64,000 bases of DNA from the NCBI GenBank assembly GCA_964455545.1, contig CAYVWQ010000010.1, positions 23,749 through 87,748 of the forward strand, read 5' to 3'. Of this stretch, positions 2,367 to 38,276 are shown in pieces (the first letter of the stretch is position 1; each line of letters opens with the position of its first letter). The position numbers and the translations under genes are program-made. The stretch is from an uncultured Thermoleophilaceae bacterium (GTDB lineage: Bacteria > Actinomycetota > Thermoleophilia > Solirubrobacterales > JACPNS01). The notes under the pieces were generated by a model. The model saw nothing but the letters and a program-made list of their open reading frames with translations, searched no databases and had not been told where the DNA came from.

Positions 2367-3182
2367 CTATGCCAACGCAGTTGCGGACTCGCGCGCGAAG
2401 TTGGCCGCCCAGTCGCCGCGAGCTTCGCCGCGCAGCGCTGGATCAGGCTCAAGGCGCTCGATACGCGCGATCGCCGTCAGTTCGTCGCCGAGCAACCGTT
2501 CCGAGATCACCTCTTCAGGGCTTTCTGGATCGAGCGTGAGCAGCACGTCCTGCTGCACCGCGTGCCACACCTCGTCCGTCAGCGGCTCGCTGGCGACCAT
2601 CGCCACGCCGCGGCGGGTCGTCCACCAGAGCTCGAAGATCCCGAGTCGGTAGGCGTACAGCTTGAGGCCGTCACTGAACACAAAGTTGAGACCGGAGAAG
2701 GTGTGTCCGGCGACCAGCGCCGCGACCGTGCTGCGCATCGATCTGACGGGATCGGCCGGGTCGAAATCCGCCATCAGCCGCATGAAGAAGCACTCCGAGT
2801 CGGTTTCGCCGGCCGGCTCGCCCATCCCGGCGCGCAGCAGACGACGGCAGCCGAGGATCGTCCCGTTGTGGGCGAAGCTGTACGGGCCGTACTCAAACGG
2901 GTGGGTGTTCTCGTCCTTCAGGCCGCCCAGCGTGGCGCGGCGGACATGGACGTTGAACAGCCGGCCGCGGAGGTTCGTCGCAGTGTCGAAACGGGCGTCG
3001 TTGTGTGCAGCGACGGCGAAGCGCTCCGTCGCGGGGGCCGGTTGAAGCAACTCACGGTAGGCCGCCATACCCCATCCGGAGTCGTGACTCTCGGAGAGTC
3101 GGATCATCGGGTTGGTCGAGTCGACCAACTCATGCCGGACTGAAATCGGGTCCGACGAAACTGCTCCGAACACACGGCACAT
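2367..3182 (-). CDS. class II (Ntn) glutamine amidotransferase, YafJ/EgtC-like
   Basis: The ORF track gives 417 aa. I trimmed to MCRVFGAVSS (Met-Cys N-terminus typical of Ntn amidotransferases; cat at 3180-3182). The upstream 146 codons are low-complexity read-through. Confidence 0.7.
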   Translation of the reverse strand: MCRVFGAVSSDPISVRHELVDSTNPMIRLSESHDSGWGMAAYRELLQPAPATERFAVAAHNDARFDTATNLRGRLFNVHVRRATLGGLKDENTHPFEYGPYSFAHNGTILGCRRLLRAGMGEPAGETDSECFFMRLMADFDPADPVRSMRSTVAALVAGHTFSGLNFVFSDGLKLYAYRLGIFELWWTTRRGVAMVASEPLTDEVWHAVQQDVLLTLDPESPEEVISERLLGDELTAIARIERLEPDPALRGEARGDWAANFARESATALA

Positions 3183-3305
3183 CTCGGAAATCAAGATACA
3201 CCTTCGTCGCGGCGGTGCACTCCGACCCGATCGGTCCATTCCTCGCGTACACTGCGCTTCAACGGTGCTGGGGGGCGCCGGCAAATCTCGTTGGAGGATC
3301 AATCG

Positions 3306-4841
3306 ATGTCCCAGACCCCTGCAGTTTCCGACTACGACAGCGTCGACGTACTCGTCATCGGCTGCGGCGTTTCCGGCGTCAGCACCGGCGTGCACCTGAA
3401 GACCGATTCCCCGGGAACGACGTTCGTGATCCTGGAGGCGCGCGACAGCATCGGTGGAACCTGGGATTTCTTCAAGTATCCGGGCGTGCGCTCCGACTCT
3501 GACATGTTCACTTTCGGCTTTCGCTTCAAGCCGTGGCTCGGGGAGAAATCGTTGGCCGACGCCGGTTCGATCCTCGCGTACATCAACGAGACCGTCGATG
3601 AGTTCGGCCTGCGCAAGCACATCAGGGTCGCCACGAGGGTGATCGCGGCCGACTGGAACAGCGACGAGTCACGCTGGTTCGTCACCACGAAGAACTCCCA
3701 CACCGGCGAGGAGTCGCTGATCAAAGCTCGTGTACTGCACTCTGCCGCCGGTTACTACGCCTACGACGAGCCGCACACGCCAGAGTTCCCGGGCCGGGAC
3801 AATTTCAAAGGCGAGATCGTCCACCCGCAGAAGTGGCCCGAGGACCTCGACTACGCCGGCAAGAAGATGATCGTGATCGGCAGCGGCGCGACGGCGGTCA
3901 CCCTCGTGCCAGAGCTGGCAAAGGACGCCGAGCACGTGACGATGCTCCAACGTACGCCGACCTACATCCTTCCGATGCCGGCCGTCGACCCGCTCGCGAA
4001 GCCGATCCGCAAATACCTGCCGGAGAAGCTCGCTTACCGACTGATTCGCTGGAAGAACATCGGGCAGTTCATGGGCACGTTCTGGTTCAGCCGCAGATTC
4101 CCGAATCAGGCGAAGAAGTTGATCCGCTATTTCGCGGTGAAGTCCCTGCCCGAAGGGTTCGACGTCGACAAACACTTCAAGCCGCCGTACAACCCGTGGG
4201 AGCAGCGCCTTTGCGTCGTCCCGGACGGCGACTTCTTCAAGTCGATCAAGGAAGGATCCGTCGACGTGGTCACCGACCACATCAAGCAGTTCGACGAGAC
4301 CGGAATTCAGCTCGTCTCGGGCGAGCACATCGACGCCGACATCATCGTGACCGCCACGGGCTTCGACATCGAACTGTTCGGCGGAGCGAAGATCACCGTC
4401 GACGGCGAGGAGAAGCCCTACGGGGATCTCTACTCATACAAGGGACTCTCGGTCAGCGAGGTCCCGAACTTCACGTTCACGATCGGCTACACCAACGCTT
4501 CCTGGACGCTCAAGGCCGACCTCGTCTCCGAGTACCTCGCGCGCCTGGTCAATCACATGAAGGCCGGTGGCTACGACGAGTTCGTCGCAGTCCCGCCGGC
4601 CACATTCAAGGAGACCTCACCGTTCATCGACCTCTCGGCGGGCTACGTCCAGCGAGCGATCGACGACGCGCCGCGTCAGGGCGACGCCGTCCCGTGGCGG
4701 GTCTACCAGAGCTATCCCCGCGACGCGCGGATGTTTCGCCACGGCAAAATCGATGACGGCGCGATGACGTTCATCAAGCGGGCGCCGCGCGGGGAGGAAG
4801 CTCAGGTCGTTTCGGTCGCCGGTTCGCCTTCGGGTGCGTGA
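3306..4841 (+). CDS. flavin-containing / Baeyer-Villiger-type monooxygenase (EthA-like)
   Basis: Dinucleotide motifs VIGCGVSG and VIGSGATA. Fingerprint FKGEIVHPQKWPED matches FxGxxxHxxxWP. GGAGGA RBS lies 8 nt before ATG 3306, so the track start 3291 sits inside the RBS. Confidence 0.85.
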   Translation: MSQTPAVSDYDSVDVLVIGCGVSGVSTGVHLKTDSPGTTFVILEARDSIGGTWDFFKYPGVRSDSDMFTFGFRFKPWLGEKSLADAGSILAYINETVDEFGLRKHIRVATRVIAADWNSDESRWFVTTKNSHTGEESLIKARVLHSAAGYYAYDEPHTPEFPGRDNFKGEIVHPQKWPEDLDYAGKKMIVIGSGATAVTLVPELAKDAEHVTMLQRTPTYILPMPAVDPLAKPIRKYLPEKLAYRLIRWKNIGQFMGTFWFSRRFPNQAKKLIRYFAVKSLPEGFDVDKHFKPPYNPWEQRLCVVPDGDFFKSIKEGSVDVVTDHIKQFDETGIQLVSGEHIDADIIVTATGFDIELFGGAKITVDGEEKPYGDLYSYKGLSVSEVPNFTFTIGYTNASWTLKADLVSEYLARLVNHMKAGGYDEFVAVPPATFKETSPFIDLSAGYVQRAIDDAPRQGDAVPWRVYQSYPRDARMFRHGKIDDGAMTFIKRAPRGEEAQVVSVAGSPSGA

Positions 4842-27334: not shown

Positions 27335-28087
27335 TCAGTGAGTGCTGTAGACCGTGCCGGTGCTGCCGAAGCCGAGCTTGTGCTTCAGGGCCGCCGTCAG
27401 GTCCCAGTCGCGGCCGGCGATGTACGGCCCGCGGTCGATGACTCGGGCGGTCACGGTGCGAGATCCCACCTTGAACGTGACCTGCGTCCCGCACGGGAGC
27501 GTCTTGTGCGCGACGCCGACGGTTGACGGCGAGAGGCGGCCGCCGCACGCAAGCCCTCCGCCATAGAGCCCGGGTCCGTAGTAGGACGCGAAGCTGCGGC
27601 GGAAGATGTAGGCGTTTCCGAGCGTGTCCGACACGACGCGGCCGGCCTTGTTCACGGTCAGGCGCGTGCGGTAGCGGCCCGGCTTGCCCTTCGTCCACTT
27701 CAAGGTGAAGTGGTGGCCGCCGCGCACGACCCGCGTCGCGACACTGTGCCAATTGTTGGTCCCGATGCGACGGACCTTCAGGCGCACACGAGCGCTTCCG
27801 CTCACCGCCCCGGTGACGATCCCTCGCACCTTGATCCCGCCGCGACCGGTCGCGCGGCGAGCCGTGAACCTGCCACTGATGTGAACCGCCTTCGACGCCT
27901 TCGAGCTCTTCTGGCTCGTGGCTCCGCCGGTCTTCTGACCGTCGGTACCGGCGGCGCGAGCGATCGGCACGGCCACTAGGACCAACGTCGCGAGAGCGAG
28001 CGGCACCACGCCGATCGGAAGTTTGATGGAGTTCAGCGTTGTCTGAGCGCGCAGAGCAATACCCCGCGTGCGGGCCTTCTTGTGCAT
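27335..28087 (-). CDS. RlpA-like double-psi beta-barrel (DPBB) cell-wall protein, membrane-anchored/secreted
   Basis: C-terminal SYYGPGLYGGGLACGGRL...AHKTLPCGTQVTF...ARVIDRGPYIAGRDWDL is a typical RlpA/DPBB domain. N-terminal TM/signal segment. Confidence 0.8.
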   Translation of the reverse strand: MHKKARTRGIALRAQTTLNSIKLPIGVVPLALATLVLVAVPIARAAGTDGQKTGGATSQKSSKASKAVHISGRFTARRATGRGGIKVRGIVTGAVSGSARVRLKVRRIGTNNWHSVATRVVRGGHHFTLKWTKGKPGRYRTRLTVNKAGRVVSDTLGNAYIFRRSFASYYGPGLYGGGLACGGRLSPSTVGVAHKTLPCGTQVTFKVGSRTVTARVIDRGPYIAGRDWDLTAALKHKLGFGSTGTVYSTH

Positions 28088-28097
28088 TCTTGAAAAT

Positions 28098-28242
28098 GCT
28101 CCTTCCAGCGCCTACGGAGTTAGCTGACGGGCTCGCGACGGTCTCTCCTCGAGTGTCGCTACGACCGGATCACCGGTCGATTCGCCCCAGGTGTGCATGA
28201 AGCACGTTGGGTCCCCCGTCCGACATGAGCGAGACGGTTCGG
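28098..28242 (-). promoter_or_regulatory. cyclic-di-AMP riboswitch (ydaO/yuaA class)
   Basis: The minus strand contains CUCGCUCAUGUCGGACGGGGGACCCA, CUGGGGCGAAUC and GAGCCCGUCAGCUAACUCCGUAGGCG in the ydaO order, compared by memory with the B. subtilis ydaO aptamer. The 3' end abuts the GGAAGGAG RBS (28099-28106) of the RlpA-like gene. Confidence 0.85.
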
Positions 28243-28371
28243 CGCCTGTTGTTTGAGTTGGCGGCGAAGAGTAGAGCCGCAATCAGATGGCTATGTGCGT
28301 TTCCTCACACAACACGCCGTTCGGGCGCAGAATCACGAAAATTGCAGAAAGTGCCTGCAAACAGCGGGTAT

Positions 28372-30159
28372 TCAGTCCGCGCGAGTCACGCGCGCGGCTT
28401 CCGCGAGCGACACGAATCCCTGGCGGACCCGGTCGAGCGCGGCATCGGCAAGGGTGACCATTCCCTGCTCCTGTGCGGCCTGCTCGATCGCTTTGGCCGG
28501 GAACTTCTCAAGCACCATCTCGCGGATGCGGTCATCGATCGTCAGTACCTCGAACAGCCCTGTGCGCCCGCGATAGCCGGTGTTCGAGCACCGCGCACAG
28601 CCCACGGCCTCGAACCCCTCGAACGAATCCTGCAGGTCGACGTCGTAGCCGGCTTCGAGCATCGCCGTCCCGTCGATCGTGACCGGACGACGGCATTCAG
28701 TGCAGAGTTTTCGCGCAAGGCGGCTGGCCACGACGCACTCGACCGAAGATGCGACCAGGTAGCGCTCGACGCCCATCTCGGTCAGGCGTGTCACCGCCGA
28801 CGCCGCGTTGTTGGTGTGCAGGGTGGTCAGCACGAGACGCCCGGTCAGGGCAGCCTCGATCGCCGTGCGCGCCGTTTCGTGGTCGCGGATCTCGCCGACC
28901 ATCACGACGTCGGGGTCGCTGCGGAGCATCGATCGCAGGCCGACGGAGAAGGTCAGCCCGCGCTTGTTGTTCACCTGAACCTGGCGCACGCCGACGAGCG
29001 GGTATTCGACCGGATCTTCGATCGTGATGATCGTGCGCTCAGGCTGGTTCAGTTCAGCCAGCGCCGCGTAAAGGGTTGTCGTCTTGCCCGACCCCGTGGG
29101 TCCGGTGGCCAGGATCGCTCCGTGCGGCTTGCGTAGTGCTCGCTCGAGCGCCTTCATTCCTTCCGGGTCCAGTCCAAGCCGGTCGAGCGGCGGAACGTTT
29201 TTTCGGTCGAGCACACGAACGGCGGCCGATTCCCCGTAGATCGTCGGCAGCGTCGCGATCCGCAGGGTCACCTGCTGACCGTCGGGCCCGAAGCTCGCGC
29301 GTCCGTCCTGCGGGAGCTGGCGGACGGAGATGTCCATTCCTCCGAGCAGTTTGAGCCGCGCGAACATGCGCCCACCGAGCTGCGCGGCGACGTTCGTCGT
29401 GTCGTGCGCGATGCCGTCGATCCGGTAGCGCACCCGGACGCTCCCGTTTTCCAGCGTGTCGAGGTGGATGTCCGATGCTCGCTGACGAAGTGCATTGGTC
29501 AAGAGCTGTTCGAGCAGGTTCGCGGATGCCGTCTCGTCCTCCCCGTCGGGCTCGCCGATGGCGGTGGCTACTCCCGACTTGCGGTGTGCGTCCTCTGTGG
29601 CGCGCTGGACGTCGTTCTTGCTCAACCGCGAAAGCAGCTCCTCGAGCTGCTCCTCGGTGGTCAGGGCGGCGCGCACGTTGAGGCCGGTCATCAGAGCGAT
29701 GTCGTCGACGGCCAAAACGTTCGATGGTTCGCTGATCGCGACCATCAGCGTGTCGTCGTCGACGTATTTCACGGGCACCGCGCGGTAGCGGGCGGCCGTG
29801 TTGCTGTCGATCGCGTTGAGCGCTCGCTCTTCGAGCTCGAGCCCGCGCAGATCTATGTAGGAAAGCTGCGTACGCGCCGCGATCGCCTGCGCCAGCTGAT
29901 CCTTCGTGATCGTCCCGCGATCGAACAGGACGCGTCCGGTCGGCCGACCGGATTCACGAGATTCCTCGACGGCGGAAGCAACCTCATCCTCGCTCGCGAA
30001 GCCGAGCGCGACCACGATCTCGCCGATCCTGCGACCGACGAGCGATTGAGGCGCCGCGACGCGTCGGGGCGCCTCGGGAATGATCTGGGGTATGTCGTGC
30101 TCCAGCTCGGGCTCATCCGCAGCCTGTAGCCGGACGCCTTCCAGGGGAGAAGTCATCAC
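28372..30159 (-). CDS. GspE/PilB-family type II/IV secretion ATPase (stand-alone)
   Basis: T2SSE_N-like N-terminus, Walker A GPTGSGKTT, Asp/His boxes, tetracysteine CTEC...CARC. 595 aa. Confidence 0.85.
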   Translation of the reverse strand: MMTSPLEGVRLQAADEPELEHDIPQIIPEAPRRVAAPQSLVGRRIGEIVVALGFASEDEVASAVEESRESGRPTGRVLFDRGTITKDQLAQAIAARTQLSYIDLRGLELEERALNAIDSNTAARYRAVPVKYVDDDTLMVAISEPSNVLAVDDIALMTGLNVRAALTTEEQLEELLSRLSKNDVQRATEDAHRKSGVATAIGEPDGEDETASANLLEQLLTNALRQRASDIHLDTLENGSVRVRYRIDGIAHDTTNVAAQLGGRMFARLKLLGGMDISVRQLPQDGRASFGPDGQQVTLRIATLPTIYGESAAVRVLDRKNVPPLDRLGLDPEGMKALERALRKPHGAILATGPTGSGKTTTLYAALAELNQPERTIITIEDPVEYPLVGVRQVQVNNKRGLTFSVGLRSMLRSDPDVVMVGEIRDHETARTAIEAALTGRLVLTTLHTNNAASAVTRLTEMGVERYLVASSVECVVASRLARKLCTECRRPVTIDGTAMLEAGYDVDLQDSFEGFEAVGCARCSNTGYRGRTGLFEVLTIDDRIREMVLEKFPAKAIEQAAQEQGMVTLADAALDRVRQGFVSLAEAARVTRAD

Positions 30160-30250
30160 CTCCCTTTTCGGCTGTTTCGCGGCGAAACGTTACGTCGACG
30201 GGTCCAATTGGACTTTTCCCCTCCTGAAAGTCGGGCAATAGGCTCTCCGC

Positions 30251-31966
30251 ATGGCCGACGACGCGACACCGAGGCTCGAGCTTGCCCTCGCCCAGATAAA
30301 CCCCGTCGTGGGCGACCTCGTCGGCAACGCCGAGATGATCATCGCGCAGCTCGAGTTGGCGAAAGAGCGCGGTGCGCAGATCGTGGTGTTTCCGGAACTT
30401 GCACTGAGCGGCTACCCGCCGGAGGACCTCGTTCTGCGCGAGGACTTTCTTGTGTCGGCCTCCCGCCAGCTCGAGCGGATCGCCGCTCGGGCCAGCGGCA
30501 TCGTCGCGTTGGTCGGATTTCCCGCGGCGCACCCAGAGGGGGTCGCGAACGCACTTGCCGTGCTCGCTGACGAGGAGATCGCACAGGTTTATCGCAAGCG
30601 GTTGCTCCCCAACTACGGCGTGTTCGATGAGCGGCGCTATTTCATTCCCGGCGACGAATCCGTCGTGATCGAGGCCGGTGGAATCCCCGTGGGCCTCTCT
30701 ATCTGCGAGGACGTCTGGTTCGACGAACCCGTCTGTTCCGAACTCGCGGCCAGGGGCGCCCGGGTGATCCTCAACGCATCGGCGTCGCCCTTTCACATCG
30801 GTAAATCGCGCGAGCGGGAAGAAATGCTCAGTTCCCGCGCCAAGCGGTTCGACACGCCGATCGCATACTGCAACCTCGTCGGCGGCCAGGACGAACTCGT
30901 CTTCGACGGGGCGAGTGTGGTGGTCGGGGCCGACGGGAGCGTCATCACCCGTGGCCCGCAGTTCGATTCCGCGCTGATCCGTTGCTCGCTCGACGTCGTG
31001 GAGCCCCCCTCCAGGCGCAATCCCGACTTCACCGCGGTGCCGCTACCGCCGGCCGGTGCGCCCGAGACGGACCCGCCGGCCGACACGCTCGCACCGCGCG
31101 AGCACGAGTCCTGGGCGGCGCTGATGACCGGCGTGCGCGATTACGTGGAGAAGAACGGTTTTCCGGGGGTTCTCGTCGGCGTCTCTGGAGGCATTGATTC
31201 GGCGGTCGTGCTCGCGCTTGCCTGCGACGCGCTCGGCCCCGAGCGGGTGACGGCGGTGACGATGCCCTCGCCTTACAACAGCCCCGAGACCCGCGGCGAC
31301 GGCGATGACCTGATCGCCCGGCTCGGCTGCGCGAGGTACGAATTCGCAATCAAACCGATGATGGATGAATTCGCGGCGGCGCTCGAACAGCCGTTCTCCG
31401 GTCGCGAGCCGGACCAGACAGAAGAGAACATCCAGGCACGGATTCGCGGGATCCTCCTGATGGCCCTGTCGAACAAGTTCGGTTCGATCGTTCTCACAAC
31501 CGGCAACAAGAGTGAGATGGCCGTCGGCTACGCGACGCTCTACGGCGACATGGCCGGCGGGTTCGCGGCGCTGAAGGACGTCCCCAAGCAGCTCGTCTTC
31601 GCGCTCGCCCGCTGGCGAAATGCGAGCAGCCCGGCCAACGGGCGCTCGTCGGCAGCGGACCCGATCCCGACGGGAATCATCGATCGACCGCCTTCCGCAG
31701 AACTCCGCCCGGACCAGACCGACGAAGCCTCCCTCGGTTCGTACGAAGTGCTCGACGACGTGATCGAGCGCTACATCGAACAGGATCAGGGTCTCGCCGA
31801 GATCGTGCAGTCAGGAGTCGACGAGGAGTTTGCCCGCCGAATCCTGCGAATGATCGACCTCGCCGAGTACAAGCGCCGTCAGGCTCCCCCGGGCGTGAAG
31901 ATCACCCACCGCGCGTTTGGCCGCGACCGGCGGATGCCGATCACCGCCCGGCGTCGCTACGAGTGA
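30251..31966 (+). CDS. nadE: glutamine-dependent NAD+ synthetase
   Basis: N-terminal nitrilase-like domain (FPELALSGYPPED, CEDVW) plus a C-terminal SGGIDS ATP-pyrophosphatase domain. 571 aa. Confidence 0.95.
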   Translation: MADDATPRLELALAQINPVVGDLVGNAEMIIAQLELAKERGAQIVVFPELALSGYPPEDLVLREDFLVSASRQLERIAARASGIVALVGFPAAHPEGVANALAVLADEEIAQVYRKRLLPNYGVFDERRYFIPGDESVVIEAGGIPVGLSICEDVWFDEPVCSELAARGARVILNASASPFHIGKSREREEMLSSRAKRFDTPIAYCNLVGGQDELVFDGASVVVGADGSVITRGPQFDSALIRCSLDVVEPPSRRNPDFTAVPLPPAGAPETDPPADTLAPREHESWAALMTGVRDYVEKNGFPGVLVGVSGGIDSAVVLALACDALGPERVTAVTMPSPYNSPETRGDGDDLIARLGCARYEFAIKPMMDEFAAALEQPFSGREPDQTEENIQARIRGILLMALSNKFGSIVLTTGNKSEMAVGYATLYGDMAGGFAALKDVPKQLVFALARWRNASSPANGRSSAADPIPTGIIDRPPSAELRPDQTDEASLGSYEVLDDVIERYIEQDQGLAEIVQSGVDEEFARRILRMIDLAEYKRRQAPPGVKITHRAFGRDRRMPITARRRYE

Positions 31967-31989
31967 TCCTCAACAATCCCCCAATCTGG

Positions 31990-32225
31990 GAAGACGTTTT
32001 CAGTTCGGCGTCACGGGGCACTTTCTAATAGGATCCTGCGCCGTAAAGGCGGGATCCGGGAGGAAACCGACCGCCCTGGGCAATGCGCCGCAACTTGCGC
32101 GGAAACCAAGGGTTAGAGGTGATGGACACAACGGGAGGAAGTCCCGATCTTTGGTCCACCATCTGGAATATCGGGACACAAGTCCATCCAAACCAATTGA
32201 GCAAGCCAGTTTTTGAGGAGGCTGC
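31990..32225 (+). promoter_or_regulatory. long structured 5' leader with mutually exclusive helices (unclassified candidate cis-regulatory RNA)
   Basis: Fold A: GATGGAC 32121-27 pairs GTCCATC 32182-88, and GTCCCGAT 32141-48 pairs ATCGGGAC 32170-77. Fold B: CGGGA 32132-36 pairs TCCCG 32142-46. GGATCC 32031-36 pairs GGATCC 32052-57 in either fold. Confidence 0.35.
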
Positions 32226-33005
32226 ATGCGTATCAAGCTAATTGCACTCGCGACGGTTGTCGCAGCGCTCGCCATCGGCGCGGGAACTGCCAACGCCGCC
32301 CTGCAGAACAGCGTTTCTGCCAAGGTCAAGTTCAGCAAGGCTGGCGGACCGGGTTCGATTGAGCTGAAGCTCAACAACATCGACGAGAGCGTTGGCACGC
32401 CTGGCTACGGCAAGGTCACCGAGCGCATCAAGCAGCTCGTCGTCAAGTCGAACTCCGTCGCCGTGAACAGCAAGGCCCTGCCTTACTGCAACATCACGAT
32501 TCCGACGAACGCCGCCGGCAACAACGACTCGACCCAGCGGACCTACATCCCGGGCAAGAGCAACTCTTCGGCCATCACGAAGGCCTGCCCGAAGAACTCG
32601 CTGATCGGTAAGGGCACGTTCACCGCCGTCGACGGAACCGTCGGCCAGGCCGCCGACTGCTCTCAGGCCGGTTGCATCAAGGGAAACCTCTACGCGTACA
32701 ACTTCAAGCCGCGTAGTGGCGACCGCCTCGGTACCGTCGTGCTGATCCAGTCCGACACCCCGGTGCCGAACGCGTACCAGTACATGTACACCGGTTGGAG
32801 CAAGTCCAACACGCTGACGGCCGACGTTCCGGCGTGGAGCGACCTGCCGCCGATCATCTCGCAGTACCTGCCGCAGGGCACCATCACGATGACGTCGATG
32901 ACCCTGAAGCTGACTGCGCCGAAGCCGAAGAAGGGCAAGAAGCCGATCTTCACGATCAAGAGCTTCAAGAACCTCGACGTCTTTGGTTCGATCGTCCGCG
33001 AGTAG
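32226..33005 (+). CDS. hypothetical secreted protein (probably abundant: strong RBS and terminator)
   Basis: Signal peptide MRIKLIALATVVAALAIGAGTANA, GAGGAGG RBS, lower G+C, Lys-rich C-terminus. No family recognised. Confidence 0.6.
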   Translation: MRIKLIALATVVAALAIGAGTANAALQNSVSAKVKFSKAGGPGSIELKLNNIDESVGTPGYGKVTERIKQLVVKSNSVAVNSKALPYCNITIPTNAAGNNDSTQRTYIPGKSNSSAITKACPKNSLIGKGTFTAVDGTVGQAADCSQAGCIKGNLYAYNFKPRSGDRLGTVVLIQSDTPVPNAYQYMYTGWSKSNTLTADVPAWSDLPPIISQYLPQGTITMTSMTLKLTAPKPKKGKKPIFTIKSFKNLDVFGSIVRE

Positions 33006-33032
33006 TTCCGGACAAGAAGTTCTGTTTGAGGA

Positions 33033-33066
33033 GGCCGGATCCGCACTGCGGGTCCGGCCTTTCTCG
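33033..33066. terminator. bidirectional stem-loop terminator between convergent genes
   Basis: GGCCGGATCCGC-act-GCGGGTCCGGCC (one G-U pair) followed by TTTCTCGTT. Confidence 0.6.
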
Positions 33067-33068
33067 TT

Positions 33069-33479
33069 CTAGGAGCGCATTTCGCGAACGGCGATCGTGA
33101 CGCGGCTGACCGCGACCGTACGGCCGTCGTCGCCGCTCATCGTCACGTCCCACACCCACGTCGTCGAGCCCTGCTGGATTGCGATGGCCTCCGCGGTCAC
33201 GCTGCCTTCGGACACGGGACGCAGAAACGTCGTGTTGTTGCTCATCCCCATCGCGATCTTGCCTTCTTTTCCGACGACGTAATAGGTGCCGACGGACGCG
33301 AGTGTCTCTGCGATCGCGGCGTGCGCTCCGCCGTGAACGATCCCGAAAGGCTGCTTCACCTGATCCTCAACGGCGAATCGGCCGGTCGCCCGGCCCTCCT
33401 CGAGGTCGTCGACCGTGATGCCGAGGGCGGCGTTCAGGCCTTTGTCGAGGGGCACTTTTGGTTCGGGGTAGTCACTCAT
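33069..33479 (-). CDS. PaaI-family hot-dog thioesterase
   Basis: 136 aa, with QPFGIVHGGAHAAIAETLAS core motif. Confidence 0.8.
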   Translation of the reverse strand: MSDYPEPKVPLDKGLNAALGITVDDLEEGRATGRFAVEDQVKQPFGIVHGGAHAAIAETLASVGTYYVVGKEGKIAMGMSNNTTFLRPVSEGSVTAEAIAIQQGSTTWVWDVTMSGDDGRTVAVSRVTIAVREMRS

Positions 33480-33518
33480 GGCCGGAGACGGTACCGGCGG
33501 GCTTAGGATTCCCGTTCG

Positions 33519-34022
33519 ATGGACGACGACCAGAAGGCCGCTGAACAGGCCCCTGACATCCGCAGGCGCCGCCTGATTCTCTACGCAGCCGCGTCGTTGG
33601 CCCTTGCCGCTGTGATCGTCGCGGGCGTTCTGACGCTTTCAGGAGGCACCAAGAAGCCGTCCGCCAAGCCGAAGCTGAAGGCGCCGGTCATCGTCGAACG
33701 CATCCCACTGAAGCCGGTGGACGGCTCGAGCGCGCGGGGCCTTGGCGAGCTCGTGCGACGTGAGGACAAGGACGGGTTCCGGGTGCTGGCGGTGCAGCTC
33801 AAGCCGTCGTCCGGCGACAACCAGGCCTACCAGCTGGTCCTGACCGGCGGTGAACCGGAGAAGCTTCTCGGCACCGAGGTGGTCGGAAAGGACGGCGCTT
33901 TTGTTGGTGAATCGCCGGTCTCGGCAACCGAGCTACACAGTTTCAAGCGCGTCGAGCTACGCCGCGTTACGCGTAAACCTGAGACCGCGAAAACGGTTCT
34001 GCGCGGGAAGATCCCGAACTAA
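33519..34022 (+). CDS. hypothetical membrane-anchored protein (anti-sigma RskA-C-like ectodomain?)
   Basis: Charged N-terminus, one TM (LILYAAASLALAAVIVAGVLTL), beta-rich ectodomain with a YQLVLTGG segment. Confidence 0.45.
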   Translation: MDDDQKAAEQAPDIRRRRLILYAAASLALAAVIVAGVLTLSGGTKKPSAKPKLKAPVIVERIPLKPVDGSSARGLGELVRREDKDGFRVLAVQLKPSSGDNQAYQLVLTGGEPEKLLGTEVVGKDGAFVGESPVSATELHSFKRVELRRVTRKPETAKTVLRGKIPN

Positions 34023-34816
34023 GGCCGCTGCTGGACCAGGCGACGCAGGTCGCGCACGAGCAGCAGGTGCTTGAGGTGCGAGGTGACGGCGGTGAGGTTT
34101 TCGAGCGCCTCAACGGCCTCACCCCTCGACTCGCGGCTGCGTGAGCGGAGTGCCGGCGCGAAGATCTGCTCGAGCAGTGCCGCCTCGCGGTCAGCGGAGG
34201 TCTTGAAGACGCGCAGATTGCGCCCACTGACGCCGTAACGGGCAAGTTCGGTGACGGCGCGGATGATTTCTCGCTCGCTCTCGTCGAAATATGTGGCGCC
34301 GGCGCGACGGGACCCGGTCACGAGACCGAAGTCGATCAGCTCTTTGACCAGCTCCGGCGCGGCCCCGGTGTCAGCGAGAACGTCGTCGGCGGCGTAGAGC
34401 GTCTGGGCCTGCTCGTCGGTGAGGCTGAACCTGCGTCCGCTGCTACGGCCTGAGGGCGCGGCAGATGGAGCGGGAATCTCGTCCTCGGAGCGCCCGGCGG
34501 AGAGCTCCTGACGGATCACGCGGAGCGGCAGGTATTCGTCGCGCTGCAGGCGCAGGATCGTGCGCAGACGCGCGACGTCGTTCTGCGAGTAGACGCGGTA
34601 GCCGCCTTCGGTGCGCTTGGGCGTGAGCAGCTTCTGGTCTTCGAGGTAGCGGATCTTGGAGATCGAGACGTCGCCGAATTCTTTTGCGAGCGTCTTGCGC
34701 ACCGCGCCGATCGTGAGCGCCTTCTCGCGCGGAGCGATGATCGGGTCGGCGGCGCCATTGCCATTTGTGGCGCTGGCGGCGGAAGCCACTCCGGTCTGCG
34801 AGTCGACGCCTGACAT
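34019..34816 (-). CDS. MerR-family regulator, FtsR/Rv1828-like two-domain type
   Basis: MerR HTH LTIGAVRKTLAKEFGDVSISKIRYLEDQKLLTPKRTEGGYRVYS plus a second MerR-like C-terminal half. Its start shares one base with the FHA gene stop. Confidence 0.8.
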   Translation of the reverse strand: MSGVDSQTGVASAASATNGNGAADPIIAPREKALTIGAVRKTLAKEFGDVSISKIRYLEDQKLLTPKRTEGGYRVYSQNDVARLRTILRLQRDEYLPLRVIRQELSAGRSEDEIPAPSAAPSGRSSGRRFSLTDEQAQTLYAADDVLADTGAAPELVKELIDFGLVTGSRRAGATYFDESEREIIRAVTELARYGVSGRNLRVFKTSADREAALLEQIFAPALRSRSRESRGEAVEALENLTAVTSHLKHLLLVRDLRRLVQQRP

Positions 34817-35277
34817 CAGCGCTCCAGAAAGGTCAGCTTGAACTTTCCGACCTGCAGCTCGTCGCCGTCGGCGAGATGATGCGACTCGATGCGCCGACGG
34901 TTGACATATGTGCCGTTGAGCGAACCGAGGTCGTCGATGTGCAGGCCGTCGGCGCGCTTGACGATCACCGCGTGATTGCGCGAGACGGTCACGTCGTCGA
35001 GAAAGACATCCGAGTCCGTGTCTCGGCCGACGGTGAACCGCTCTCCTTCAAGTGTGAAACTGTCGCCGGCGCGGCCGCCGGTCCGAATCACCAGTGAGGG
35101 TCCGCCAGCGCCGGCGTCGACGCTGCTGACGGCTTCGCCCTCGGTGGTCTCCCCCAGCTCGTACTGGGCCGTGGTCGAGCCCGGGCTCGCCTCGTCGGCC
35201 AGGTAGGCACCGCACTTCTGGCAGTAGTTCGCGCCAGGCGGGTTGACGAACCCGCATTCAGGACAGTGCAGCGCCAT
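34816..35277 (-). CDS. FHA-domain protein with N-terminal zinc ribbon (GarA/OdhI-like position)
   Basis: CPECGFVNPPGANYCQKCG ribbon. FHA core FTVGRDTDSDVFLDDVTVSRNHA...SLNGTYVN. Confidence 0.85.
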   Translation of the reverse strand: MALHCPECGFVNPPGANYCQKCGAYLADEASPGSTTAQYELGETTEGEAVSSVDAGAGGPSLVIRTGGRAGDSFTLEGERFTVGRDTDSDVFLDDVTVSRNHAVIVKRADGLHIDDLGSLNGTYVNRRRIESHHLADGDELQVGKFKLTFLER

Positions 35278-35283
35278 CTGGTT

Positions 35284-35844
35284 CTACTCGCCTTCGGCCG
35301 GCGCGGCCGCCTTGCCCGACAGGATCTCGGTGAGTTGTTCGATGTCCTCGCCCGTGATCGTCGCCTCGCCCTCCTCGCGCTGCGTGCGCATGCGGTTGAC
35401 GAGCTCGGCGCGGAGAATGTCGATCTTGCCGTGGAGGATGCGGCGCTGGTAGGAAATTTCGCGTTCCTCCTCGGTGAGCTTGCGGATCAGGTCCTTCAGC
35501 TCGGGATCGGAAAGCGCGCTGAGGTCGGGGAACCCCTGCTCCGTGTCGGCGGACACATCGACGTCGCCGTCGGCCTCTGCCAGCGGGCCGCCGGGCGAGG
35601 CGTCGCTCTCGGCGGTGGTGATCAGGTCCGTGAGCTTGGCCACGTCGGCGTCGGTGATCGACTCGTTGCCGGCGTCGTGGCGCGCGCGCAGGCGGTTGAC
35701 CAGCTCAGCGCGCAGAAGGTCGATCTTGCCGTGGAGAATGCGCCTGCTGTAGGAAATCTCCTGTTCGGTCGACGCGAGGTCACCGATCAATCCCTTGAGT
35801 TCGGCGTCGCTCATCGAGCCGATGTCTGAAACCCATTCCTCCAA
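35284..35844 (-). CDS. tandem-duplicated coiled-coil protein, RsiG-like (candidate cyclic-dinucleotide-binding anti-sigma-type protein)
   Basis: 186 aa, TTG start with GAGGGGAG RBS. Residues 11-86 and 111-186 are homologous. Both copies carry E-x3-S-x2-R-x3-H-x3-D (EQEISYSRRILHGKID, EREISYQRRILHGKID). The CDS is solid; the function is inferred. Confidence 0.6.
   Translation of the reverse strand: MEEWVSDIGSMSDAELKGLIGDLASTEQEISYSRRILHGKIDLLRAELVNRLRARHDAGNESITDADVAKLTDLITTAESDASPGGPLAEADGDVDVSADTEQGFPDLSALSDPELKDLIRKLTEEEREISYQRRILHGKIDILRAELVNRMRTQREEGEATITGEDIEQLTEILSGKAAAPAEGE
35287..35814 (-). repeat. intragenic tandem duplication, period exactly 300 nt (100 codons)
   Basis: For example, GCGGTTGAC at 35392-35400 and 35692-35700. 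The core is GTCGATCTTGCCGTGGAG in both copies. 23 of 27 residues are identical in the protein core by manual count. Confidence 0.8.
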
Positions 35845-35908
35845 CGCGGCGCTCCCCTCGAAATAAACACGTGTCCAGCAGGTTCAGGCAGTATAAGCAA
35901 ACAAATCC

Positions 35909-36562
35909 CTAAGGCTCGACCCTTGGTTGAGGTCTTGCGTTCTGGGCCTCCCGCTGCAGTTTCAAGCTCTCGCGCGCCGACTTGACGTAAAGCGCAGTCG
36001 CCGCGTAAGAACCAACCACTCCCACCCATACAAGCACGTTCGCGACCGGAGTGTCGGCGCACAGGGCGATGAATCCGCCGGCCATCAACGGCCAGACCGA
36101 CAGACGACCGATCCAGTTGACCTCGATCGAGATGTGGCGCCTAAGGGCGTAGAGCGACATCACCAGCATCAACCCCTCACGCACGAAGACGAGGATTATC
36201 AGGTAGCGCGGGAGCAGTTCGAACTTGTAGATGATGATCCCGGCGGCGATGATCAGGAGTCGGTCGATCAGCGGATCGAGCAGTTTTCCCATACGGCTGA
36301 ACTGGCCGGTCAGACGCGCGGCGAGGCCATCGAGGTAGTCGCTCGCTCCGCAGATGAACATCGCGATGTTCGCGGTCGTATCGCGGCCGTCAGGCGAGTT
36401 CCAGGCCAGCACGAAGAACACCGGGATCAGCAGCGCGCGGACGTAGCCGATCGCATTTGGAATGGTCCACGGTCGCAGTGGCTCGCTGTCGCCGGTGCGC
36501 GCGTCCGGGCCGCCGGAACGGTCGATTCCTGCGATCCGCTTCAGGTTGCGTTCGCGTGGCAT
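35909..36562 (-). CDS. CDP-alcohol phosphatidyltransferase (PgsA / actinobacterial cardiolipin-synthase type)
   Basis: Trimmed to MPRERNLKRI (cat at 36560-62). Perfect DG-x2-AR-x8-G-x3-D-x3-D motif in DYLDGLAARLTGQFSRMGKLLDPLIDRL. Confidence 0.8.
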   Translation of the reverse strand: MPRERNLKRIAGIDRSGGPDARTGDSEPLRPWTIPNAIGYVRALLIPVFFVLAWNSPDGRDTTANIAMFICGASDYLDGLAARLTGQFSRMGKLLDPLIDRLLIIAAGIIIYKFELLPRYLIILVFVREGLMLVMSLYALRRHISIEVNWIGRLSVWPLMAGGFIALCADTPVANVLVWVGVVGSYAATALYVKSARESLKLQREAQNARPQPRVEP

Positions 36563-36575
36563 CGCGTCGCCGTGC

Positions 36576-38276
36576 TCAATCGATCGTGGCAAGCCGCGAC
36601 GCGATCGCCGCGCAGGCGCCGTCGACCGGGATCGACTCTCCCGCCTGACCGCGACGAATCTGCAACTCCAACTCGCCGTTCTCAAGCCCGCGTTTGCCGA
36701 CTGTCACCCGCAGCGGGCACCCCAAAAGCTCGGCGTCAGCGAACTTCGCCCCCGGGCCGCCGTCGCGGTCGTCGTAGACAACTTCGACTCCTGCGCCGCG
36801 CAGCTCGTCGTAGAGGGCGTCAGCGACGCGCTGCTCCTCGGACCCCTCGCCCTTTGCGAGTGAAACGAGGTGAACCTGGAACGGCGCGATTGACTTCGGC
36901 CAGACGATGCCGGCGTCGTCGGCGAGTTGCTCGACTGCTGCGGCGGCCACACGCGCCGGGCCGATGCCGTAGCTGCCCATGACGATCGGGTGCTCTTTGC
37001 CCTGTTCGTCGAGGTAGGTCGCGCCGAGCGCCTCGCTGTAGCGCGTGCCGAGTTTGAAGATGTTTCCGATCTCGATCGCCGGGACGATCTCGATCGCTTC
37101 TCCCGAATCGGTGGTGTCGCCGGCCTCCACGCTACGAACGTCGGCGAACTCGGTCTGGAAATCGCGGCCGATCTCGACGCCCCGCAGGTGAGCGTCCGGC
37201 GTGTTCGCGCCGGTGATCCAGCCCTCTGGCTGGCCCTCGCACGCGCGGTCGGTGAGGACGCGTACAGAGGCCCCCACGGGGCCGGTGTACCCCGCGGCCG
37301 ACCCGAAGCGCGACGCGATCTCGTCCTCGCGTGCCTGGCGCATCGGCCTGCCAAGGGCGTTCTGGAGCTTGATCTCGTTCAGCGAGTGATCGCCCCGCAA
37401 CATCACGAGCAGCGGCGTTCCGTCCTCTTCGTCGATCATCGGCATCGCCTTGAGCAGCGTGCTGGCGTGCACGTCGAGCATGCCTGCGACCTCTTCGATC
37501 GTCGTCTTGCCCGGGGTGGAAACCTCTTCCGGGGCACTGAGCACGGGGCCGGCACTGCGCGGCTGAGCGGTCGCGGACGCGACTTCGACGTTGGCGGCGT
37601 AGCCCGGTGCCAGCGCCACGGAGTCCTCGCCAGCGGGGCAAGGGGCCATGAACTCATCCGCCCCCGATCCGCCCATCATCCCGACGTCGGACTCGACCAT
37701 GTACCACTCGAGGCCGGCACGGTCGAAGATCCGCTTGTAAGCAGCGGCCTGGGTCGCGTAGGAGCGCTCAAGCCCCTCGACGTCGCGATCAAAGCTGTAG
37801 GCGTCCTTCATCGTGAACTCCCGCGTGCGCAGCATCCCTGCGCGCGGACGCGGTTCATCGCGGCCCTTGGTCTGAAACTGGTAAAGCGTCAGGGGCAGGT
37901 CGCGATAGGAGCGCACCTCGCGTGCAACGTGATTCGTCACCGCCTCTTCGTGGGTCATCGCCAGGACGAGGTCGGCGTCCTTGCGGTCCTTCAGCTTGAA
38001 TAGCTCGGTGATCCCATATCGCCCGGTCTTCTGCCACAGCTCGGCCGGCTGGATCACGGGCATCAGCATCTCGATGGCGCCGGCTGCGTCCATCTCCTCG
38101 CGGATGATCTGTTCGACCTTGCGTTGAACGCGCCATCCGGCGGGCATGTACGTCCACAGGCCGGATCCGACCTGCCGGATCAATCCAGCCCGCACCATCA
38201 GCTTGTGCGAGATCGCCTCGGCGTCGGCCGGCGGTTGCTTCACGGTCGGGAGGAGATATTCGGAGAGGCGCGTCAT
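36576..38276 (-). CDS. proS: prolyl-tRNA synthetase (bacterial type with editing insertion)
   Basis: Trimmed to MTRLSEYLLPTVKQPPADAEAISHKLMVRAGLIRQ. Class II motifs present, 566 aa. Confidence 0.95.
   Translation of the reverse strand: MTRLSEYLLPTVKQPPADAEAISHKLMVRAGLIRQVGSGLWTYMPAGWRVQRKVEQIIREEMDAAGAIEMLMPVIQPAELWQKTGRYGITELFKLKDRKDADLVLAMTHEEAVTNHVAREVRSYRDLPLTLYQFQTKGRDEPRPRAGMLRTREFTMKDAYSFDRDVEGLERSYATQAAAYKRIFDRAGLEWYMVESDVGMMGGSGADEFMAPCPAGEDSVALAPGYAANVEVASATAQPRSAGPVLSAPEEVSTPGKTTIEEVAGMLDVHASTLLKAMPMIDEEDGTPLLVMLRGDHSLNEIKLQNALGRPMRQAREDEIASRFGSAAGYTGPVGASVRVLTDRACEGQPEGWITGANTPDAHLRGVEIGRDFQTEFADVRSVEAGDTTDSGEAIEIVPAIEIGNIFKLGTRYSEALGATYLDEQGKEHPIVMGSYGIGPARVAAAAVEQLADDAGIVWPKSIAPFQVHLVSLAKGEGSEEQRVADALYDELRGAGVEVVYDDRDGGPGAKFADAELLGCPLRVTVGKRGLENGELELQIRRGQAGESIPVDGACAAIASRLATID

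Follow-up and report, generated by a model that had tools for sequence, protein, structure and literature searches.

Downstream of nadE, a 64,000-nt stretch of DNA from an uncultured Thermoleophilaceae bacterium (contig CAYVWQ010000010.1, positions 23,749 to 87,748; called here the window, with positions counted from its first letter) carries a 259-nt spacer that separates the nadE stop (31966, as read from the sequence) from the ATG (32226) of an open reading frame (ORF) for a secreted protein. We found that the leader encoded in this spacer is a clade-specific structured 5' untranslated region (5' UTR) motif that belongs to no curated RNA family. The motif has a defined architecture, is present in one copy per locus and is strictly linked to an orphan, basic, all-beta secreted protein; the Solirubrobacterales clade that possesses it is known here from metagenome bins alone. 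As for its role, the explanation that we favor, and to which the analysis as a whole leads us to give about an even chance, is that of a dedicated and mostly constitutive 5' UTR that would stabilize the mRNA and set its translation, rather than that of a two-state switch.

Conservation and architecture of the leader

We compared 21 non-identical loci that include the upstream region, gathered from genome and metagenome scans (the metagenome scan contributing one locus only) and from exact-protein look-ups. All 21 distinct loci display the order nadE, spacer, secreted-protein ORF and thioesterase gene. The spacers can be aligned over their full length, with 41 invariant columns, among loci whose proteins go down to about 41% identity. 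This conservation is the decisive evidence that the spacer is a functional element, and it bears out the original prediction of a long, structured and conserved leader in front of a secreted protein of unknown family.

From 5' to 3', the conserved blocks are TAGGAT, GGAGGAAAC, GCGCAACTT, G(T)GTTAC, TGGAC...(GCTGCA)GTCCA and AGCAAGCCAG-TTTTT-GAGGAGGCTGCATGCGTATCAAG. The distance from TAGGAT to the loop CGCAACUU (the CGCAACTT block, which lies in the loop of hairpin P2) is 56 to 62 nt in 20 of the 21 loci, and that from this block to TGGAC is 32 to 34 nt in all of them. The sole locus outside the first range, L012, has a distance of 71 nt; some 12 extra nucleotides in its P2 (approximately 1030 to 1045 in that locus) bring in a UGCG, and in its minimum free energy (MFE) fold this inserted UGCG pairs with the invariant CGCA, replacing the usual downstream UGCG. 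The inter-block spacings fall in all classes modulo 3, meaning that no hidden ORF spans the blocks on either strand; a leader peptide or hidden ORF (the 52-aa ORF at 32083 to 32241 or the minus-strand ORFs) was thus ruled out.

A search of the whole window against Rfam 15 at gathering thresholds gave a cyclic di-AMP (c-di-AMP) riboswitch at 28094 to 28254 as its sole match. With E≤10 on the region 31900 to 32300, only mir-379 (15.8 bits, for a threshold of 56) and a fragment of a long non-coding RNA came out, and the 17 homologous loci submitted to Rfam gave no matches. The earlier statement that the leader fits no known riboswitch class was thus upheld down to this permissive limit. A covariance model of the 5' half detected 19 of the 21 loci, each of them once, and had no further match in 202 kb, the sequences being related (effective number of 2.47 in this model). 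For Solirubrobacterales or Thermoleophilia, a literature search directed at the regulation of genes or the biology of the cell surface retrieved nothing.

The common architecture was established from single-sequence folds of the 21 leaders and from alignments. The spacer consists of a putative promoter followed by a leader of about 185 to 197 nt in which a series of predicted hairpins, P1 to P5, is conserved. Relative to dinucleotide shuffles, the fold of the spacer (31967 to 32240) has a z score of −2.0 and that of the leader alone a z score of −2.1; the whole-leader score is negative in 20 of the 21 loci. For P1, P3, P3b and P5, the covariation score beat 498 to 500 of 500 shuffles as well as all slid controls.

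P1 (32031 to 32057; this and all the following leader elements are on the + strand) is made of GGAUCCUGC (32031–39), a loop (32040–48) and GCGGGAUCC (32049–57). It contains the two GGATCC sequences (32031–36 and 32052–57) pointed out in the original prediction, and its 5' arm starts inside TAGGAT. The hairpin is part of the window MFE fold; its z score is −4.2 there and averages about −2.3 over 15 loci. In the model-based alignment 85.8% of its cells are paired, with three pairs altered in both arms and 22 G-U cells; these G-U cells, together with the many G-U pairs found overall, point to a structure formed by the + strand RNA.

P1 is immediately followed by a polypurine stretch resembling a Shine-Dalgarno (SD) sequence, GGGAGGAAAC (32058 to 32067), whose core GGAGG (32059–63) is complementary to the anti-SD CCUCC and lies 163 nt before the ATG. 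The corresponding motif GGAGGAAAC is invariant in 15 of the 21 loci and mostly single-stranded in the MFE folds, and none of these 15 loci has an AUG, GUG or UUG 4 to 14 nt downstream of it. The window leader contains two more SD-like stretches (32116 to 32123 and 32133 to 32141), GAGGUGAU and, in the P3a loop, GGGAGGAAG; several relatives have GGAGGCU inside P3a, copying the real SD region.

P2 (32073 to 32113) comprises an outer helix, GCCCUGG/CC-A-AGGGU, which contains the CCCTGG...CCAAGGG arms already seen to enclose a GC hairpin, and an inner helix, UGCGC (32084–88)/GCGCG (32097–101), closing the loop CGCAACUU (32089–96). This loop is identical in 18 of the 21 loci and differs by one base in the remaining three. 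In the model alignment 80.6% of the inner helix is paired and 60.7% of the outer one, the latter value being low because the register differs between clades. The outer helix, judged from the per-sequence folds, is thus a probable element; as for P4 below, its support comes from recurring hairpins and not from column statistics. P2 is followed by the junction GGUUA (32112 to 32116), the window version of a G(U)GUUAC(A) that is invariant in the family: alignments A3 and A4 both show an unchanging GTT, and most loci have the full GTGTTAC. We found no pairing partner for the GUGUUAC junction.

The P3 domain (32117 to 32164) is closed by AGGUG-A-UGGAC (32117–27) and GUCCA-C-CAUCU (32154–64) and encloses, in the window, the helix CGGGA (32132–36)/UCCCG (32142–46), which belongs to Fold B (see below). 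Its UGGAC/GUCCA helix is 94.4% paired in the 21 loci, with a closing purine-pyrimidine pair that is GC in 10, GU in 5 and AU in 4; the pair probability is 0.97 in the window, and the z score is negative in all 21 loci (mean of about −2.5). The interior ranges from none to two hairpins, the arms being 17 to 52 nt apart with variable sequence between them. Most relatives have there a hairpin that the window does not possess, P3b (GCRGC-NNN-GCUGC), which is 92.2% paired and has three pairs with double changes.

A CA-rich stretch ending in AGGAC links P3 to P4, and an AGGAC-like motif is kept at this place in most loci. P4 (32174 to 32185) is a mini-hairpin, GGAC (32174–77), ACAA and GUCC (32182–85), with a pair probability of 0.91 to 0.97 in the window; Fold A (see below) draws on the same bases. 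By inspection, a hairpin of unrelated sequence occupies its position in about 13 of the 21 loci and is absent elsewhere.

Finally, P5 (32201 to 32229) involves the ribosome-binding site (RBS): GCA-A-GC-C-AGUUUU (32201–13) faces GAGGCU-GC-A-UGC (32218–29) across the loop UGAG. The predicted partners of the U-tract and GCAAGCC are thus the 3' half of the SD, the spacer and the U and G of the AUG (32226–28). The SD itself, GAGGAGG at 32215–21, is located 4 nt before the ATG, as had been noted before. The predicted energy of P5 is −7.6 kcal/mol, and GAGGAGGCTGCATGCGTA is nearly invariant in the 21 loci. P5 is 89.4% paired across them; its changes are one-sided only, from U-G to C-G in L025 and L027. 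RNAalifold, run independently on eight 3' halves, recovered P3, P3b and P5.

Several long-range pairings were considered and discarded. On the raw MAFFT alignment of the whole leaders, RNAalifold paired CGCA with the UGCG of the start codon and UGCAG-UCC-ACC with the SD region, all in invariant columns; we dropped these pairings since the variants are uncompensated (CGAAACUU in L022, CCGCAG/CUGUAUG in L019, CUUUGG in the window). A pseudoknot between ACUUG of the P2 loop and CAAGU upstream of P3 was rejected on inspection, as the junction varies (CAGGU, AGAGU, CAAAU and others) when the loop is fixed. The same applies to CUUGC with the conserved GCAAG of P5, broken without compensation in L006, L009, L017, L020 and L030.

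The blocks could also act at the DNA level, as promoter, operators or roadblock site, the RNA folds being incidental. TAGGAT is invariant and presumably fits an actinobacterial −10 element, the GGATCC...GGATCC inverted repeat overlaps it, and GCGCAACTTGCGC is a near-palindrome in 13 of the 21 loci. However, the 22 G-U cells of P1, like the G-U-rich P3b and P5, would count as mispairs if the blocks were read as DNA or from the other strand, and the CGCAACTT palindrome is conserved in its left half only. Moreover, P3 arms that stand 17 to 52 nt apart around a variable sequence suit a helix better than a protein site. We thus regard a purely DNA-level role as distinctly improbable.

Alternative folds and the proposed switch

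The original prediction described two mutually exclusive folds, and all the helix coordinates that it listed were retrieved in the sequence. Fold A combines an outer stem, GATGGAC (32121–27) with GTCCATC (32182–88), and an inner 8-bp stem, GTCCCGAT (32141–48) with ATCGGGAC (32170–77). Fold B pairs CGGGA (32132–36) with TCCCG (32142–46), and GATGGAC can alternatively pair with GGTCCACCATC (32153–63). Both folds do exist, and to this extent the proposal holds; they are, however, unbalanced. Fold B is the MFE structure of the window (−29.9 kcal/mol, pair probability of about 0.97), and Fold A, at −26.5 kcal/mol, is 3.4 kcal/mol worse and accounts for a probability of about 0.02 to 0.03.

Fold A is not conserved either. 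Its inner stem GTCCCGAT/ATCGGGAC is unique to the window: the leader-bearing loci nearest to it, L010 and L012, have no counterpart, nor has any other locus, and the outer stem can form only within the three-member clade of the window, where P4 is GGAC/GUCC. Fold A is thus a by-product of the repeated GGAC/GUCC words. The helix that is found family-wide is the pairing initially presented as the alternative one, GATGGAC/GGTCCACC. Since the orthologous leaders keep the Fold B helices and not those of Fold A, a two-state switch between the two folds is not retained.

When the UGGAC arm was blocked in silico in the 21 leaders, GUCCA found a new partner, which was the downstream AGGAC in about half of the leaders and the SD in the rest; across these homologues, no consistent shift in SD or AUG accessibility was observed. 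The cost of forcing P3 stays below 1 kcal/mol in 15 of the 21 homologues; in the others it reaches at most 8 kcal/mol. The leader holds no conserved terminator, which goes against the idea of an attenuator: indeed, the terminator-like sites of the window leader are limited to 32132–46 followed by AUCUUUGG, which is not conserved, and the conserved U-tract has no adjacent stem before it.

These data bear on the suggestion that the leader is a riboswitch, which would here be of a new class responding to a metabolite or second messenger, with P2 and P3 as aptamer and P5 as expression platform. Such a riboswitch would account for the multi-stem organization, in which the nucleotides of junction and loop are invariant and the peripheral hairpins vary, for the re-pairing of GUCCA with the conserved AGGAC or the SD once its partner is blocked, and for the absence of the leader from Rfam. 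Yet the leader is found only before one gene family, neither metabolic nor involved in transport; besides the lack of a conserved terminator, the SD and AUG accessibility changes are inconsistent between the constrained states, and the P3-containing fold dominates without ligand, Fold A not being conserved. A riboswitch is for these reasons very unlikely.

The other sensor initially envisaged, an RNA thermometer of the FourU type in which warming would melt the pairing between U-tract and SD, fared no better. As in FourU elements, U210–213 are predicted to pair with G218–G221 of the SD in a short hairpin touching the AUG; these AGUUUU/GAGGCU pairs are G-U-rich and kept in most loci, being strengthened by C-G pairs in L025 and L027. 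Unlike FourU elements, this hairpin sits in a much larger conserved leader and its predicted melting lies outside a physiological range: the MFE hairpin of P5 is predicted to be unchanged from 10 to 55°C, the probability of the SD being unpaired rising from 0.22 to 0.40. Nor is the RBS hairpin more stable than those of its neighbors, since the initiation region (−30 to +15) has an energy of −9.6 kcal/mol, average among the eleven window genes (−6.8 to −20.5 kcal/mol). In addition, the gene belongs neither to the heat-shock nor to the virulence genes, and a U-tract at this place would presumably be expected just as well of a translational enhancer. Of the explanations that we weighed, we hold the thermometer to be a most improbable one.

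Transcript start and candidate role of the leader

Looking upstream of P1, we noticed a look-alike of the promoters recognized by SigB/SigF-type sigma factors (31996 to 32021, + strand), with the −35 GTTTTC (31996–32001), a 13–14 nt spacer and the −10 GGGGCA/GGGCAC (32015–32021). The consensus in mycobacteria and Streptomyces is GTTT-N14-19-GGGTA (PMC4694148), as in SCO3557p, GTTTGC-N14-GGGTAC (PMC8346170). The leader loci resemble it by GTTT(T/G)C, a spacing of 13–14 nt and GGG(T/C)A, and differ in that the motif is missing in six of the 21. In the 64-kb window, GTTT-N14-17-GGGYA has a single match for 1.1 expected, which is not significant in the window alone; among the homologous loci, the strict motif is located 8–12 nt upstream of TAGGAT in 12 of 21, and a relaxed one in about 15. 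The six loci without the motif still carry TAGGAT. This hexamer (32029 to 32034, + strand) is itself present in 16 of the 21 loci, and TAnnAT in all of them.

Two promoter readings may be drawn from these sequences. In the first, the promoter would be of the SigF/SigB type, with a start at about 32029, so that TAGGAT would provide the first RNA bases and the 5' arm of P1, placed at the extreme 5' end. In the second, TAGGAT, which we take to fit the actinobacterial −10 element, would be the −10 of the housekeeping sigma factor; the RNA would begin at about 32041, too late for P1 to be made. P1, by its G-U content and its pairing statistics, speaks for the first reading and the invariance of the hexamer for the second, and both promoters may be used. 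Under either of them, at least 185 nt of the conserved leader would be transcribed. A second promoter of the sigma-70 type (AACTTGC and GTGTTACA) was rejected, as its 12–14 nt spacing and hexamers are unfit and a scan gave no sigma-70-type site.

The first of these starts would suit a stabilizing leader. P1 would then be a terminal hairpin protecting the 5' end of the mRNA, followed at once by the SD-like GGAGGAAAC devoid of start codon; a 30S subunit docked on GGAGGAAAC would, together with P1, block RNases that depend on the 5' end. P5, a weak and conserved hairpin with the U-tract just upstream of the SD, would present the SD and the AUG and set the rate of initiation. In the P2/P3 region, the single-stranded invariants CGCAACUU and GUGUUAC would form a recognition site for some partner, their invariance pointing to sequence-specific recognition.

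This organization has precedents. In Bacillus, mRNAs are stabilized by 5' stem-loops and polypurine or STAB-SD sequences, and mycobacteria provide a polypurine example (PMC2358910); the 5' stabilizers of aprE and cryIIIA act by the mechanism outlined above. The leader resembles such Gram-positive 5' stabilizers (the aprE leader of B. subtilis, with its 5' stem-loop and ribosome binding, the cryIIIA STAB-SD of B. thuringiensis, ermC/polypurine, the mycobacterial katG polypurine) by its putative 5'-terminal hairpin, by an SD-like polypurine that is remote from the start codon and does not serve it (15 of 21 loci), and by its length ahead of the gene for an exported protein whose expression is presumably strong. 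As expected of a STAB-SD, the SD-like sequence stands far from the start codon and has neither a start codon nor a conserved frame of its own at GGAGGAAAC. Unlike these stabilizers, the leader has the extra invariant hairpins P2 and P3, and six relatives have no polypurine; there is no sequence relationship, and the aprE leader is exceeded three- to fourfold in length. Long structured 5' UTRs also precede genes for S-layer or major surface proteins, such as slpA of Lactobacillus and of Thermus. The present locus has the same layout, from a dedicated promoter, putative here, through a long folded leader and a strong SD to the signal peptide and the strong terminator; in contrast to the slpA systems, its protein is small (about 25 kDa when mature) and is not known to form a surface layer, and neither leader nor protein is homologous.

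Several observations weigh against a leader that would only stabilize and set translation. The six leaders without GGAGGAAAC nevertheless keep P2, P3 and P5, so that stabilization cannot be the whole function, and CGCAACUU, GUGUUAC and UGGAC/GUCCA are more invariant than a passive stabilizer requires. If TAGGAT is the −10 element, P1 is left untranscribed. The low pairing of the P2 outer helix is a further difficulty. Last, the relatedness of the sequences makes the shuffle controls overstate significance, and much of the leader signal is conservation rather than covariation.

The excess of invariance points to the main rival, which is compatible with a stabilizing leader: a translational operator, where an RNA-binding protein or small RNA would recognize CGCAACUU and/or GUGUUAC and control ribosome access or decay. 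In L025, L027 and L028 the local partner of CGCAACUU has changed and CGCAACUU itself has not, which argues for sequence-specific recognition and not for pairing alone. The geometry is fixed as well (TAGGAT to loop 56–62 nt in 20 of 21 loci, loop to P3 32–34 nt), the stem bases of P3 are almost invariant, and the leader exists as a single copy per locus, always on the secreted-protein gene, as is typical of gene-specific operators. On the other hand, no candidate factor could be pinpointed, no conserved complement to the blocks was found in the leader or first codons, where the pairings spotted by eye are broken in variants, and export of the encoded protein makes a classical autoregulation unlikely. 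We thus consider an operator rather unlikely. Should a factor prove to bind the invariant loop and junction, a new pair of regulator and RNA would be defined by the leader.

A more speculative proposal, to which we likewise attach a low probability, is that P2 and P3, through CGCAACUU and GUGUUAC, constitute a new sensor restricted to Solirubrobacterales. It would respond to a ligand or an RNA-binding protein and gate the translation or decay of an envelope protein that depends on a stress sigma factor, GUCCA competing for UGGAC, AGGAC and the SD. Were the stabilizing explanation true, the strategy known from Firmicutes, a terminal hairpin plus an orphan SD, would extend to a deep actinobacterial lineage. 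In either case, the leader would offer a practical handle, as a strong and portable expression and secretion cassette and as a metagenome marker for the clade.

The secreted protein and its genomic context

The ORF downstream of the leader (32226 to 33005, + strand) encodes 259 residues with a Sec-type signal peptide, cleaved, as read by eye, at MRIKLIALATVVAALAIGAGTANA|A; AlphaFold leaves residues 1–24 disordered. Comparison with Pfam, NCBIfam and the sequences of the PDB gave no matches, and eight distant members of the family have no Pfam domains either. Modeled by AlphaFold from a 39-sequence alignment, the protein is predicted to be all-beta (predicted local distance difference test, pLDDT, 85; predicted template modeling score, pTM, 0.83), and Foldseek against the PDB found no convincing solved relative (best E = 0.026, template modeling score 0.21). 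The mature protein, of about 25 kDa, is strongly basic, with 23 lysines and 5 arginines for 9 aspartates and 4 glutamates. At 50% identity its family forms only 38 clusters in a set of 1.84 billion proteins; at 90% identity it forms 65, every source name supplied for these being a Solirubrobacterales metagenome bin.

The lower G+C content noticed initially is real (61.3%, compared with about 66% in the neighbors) and results from a composition rich in K, N, S and T. Third codon positions reach 87.7% G+C, second only to RsiG (88.2%) among eight genes compared; the gene is thus a native one with a strong codon bias, and not foreign. The strong SD, the conserved initiation region and this third-position G+C content are consistent with high expression. 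The strong terminator announced earlier was found too: it extends from 33033 to 33069 (+ strand) and consists of a 12-bp GC-rich stem, GGCCGGAUCCGC/GCGGGUCCGGCC (33033–33059), and the U-rich tail UUUCUCGUUC, for a folding energy of −37.4 kcal/mol including flanks. It lies between the ORF and the convergent thioesterase gene.

The gene order is strictly kept over 28372–36685 of the window and in all the longer loci. On contigs that are long enough, it reads MshEN/T2SSE ATPase (−), nadE (+, whose product has CN_hydrolase and NAD_synthase domains), spacer and ORF (+) and 4HBT thioesterase (−), followed by an ORF of about 165 aa (+) with a faint anti-sigma similarity, then MerR/Rv1828-like (−), FHA (−), RsiG (−) and CDP-alcohol phosphatidyltransferase (−). 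Several of these genes encode signaling proteins; MshEN and RsiG are linked to cyclic di-GMP. The c-di-AMP (ydaO) riboswitch already mentioned (28094–28254, − strand) is full-length, scores 76 bits and stands directly upstream of a 250-aa ORF (27335–28087, − strand) with a DPBB_1 lytic-transglycosylase-like domain. A c-di-AMP riboswitch with a cell-wall hydrolase is the usual actinobacterial pairing.

A few family members depart from the general scheme. In L022 there are two tandem paralogues of the secreted protein (1916–2749 and 2886–3737). The second has its own 137-nt terminator-promoter spacer and only a short leader, in which GAGCAAGC is retained ahead of the SD, GAGGGGG; the duplication does not extend to the long leader. 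The distant member P0076 (246 aa, L034 1–300) has no long leader and shows TGTAGAGT 10 nt before its ATG, so that its mRNA probably has no leader or almost none; possession of the long leader is therefore confined to one subfamily. In the closest relatives (L011, L013, L014, L015 and L016), the short contigs start 2–14 nt before the ATG, within the invariant GAGGAGGCTGCATGCGTATCAAGCT block, so that the leaders of the nearest relatives are under-sampled. These breaks are likely caused by an identical stretch of about 30 nt at GAGGAGGCTGCATGCGTATCAAGCT in co-occurring strains or paralogues, which disrupts k-mer assemblies.

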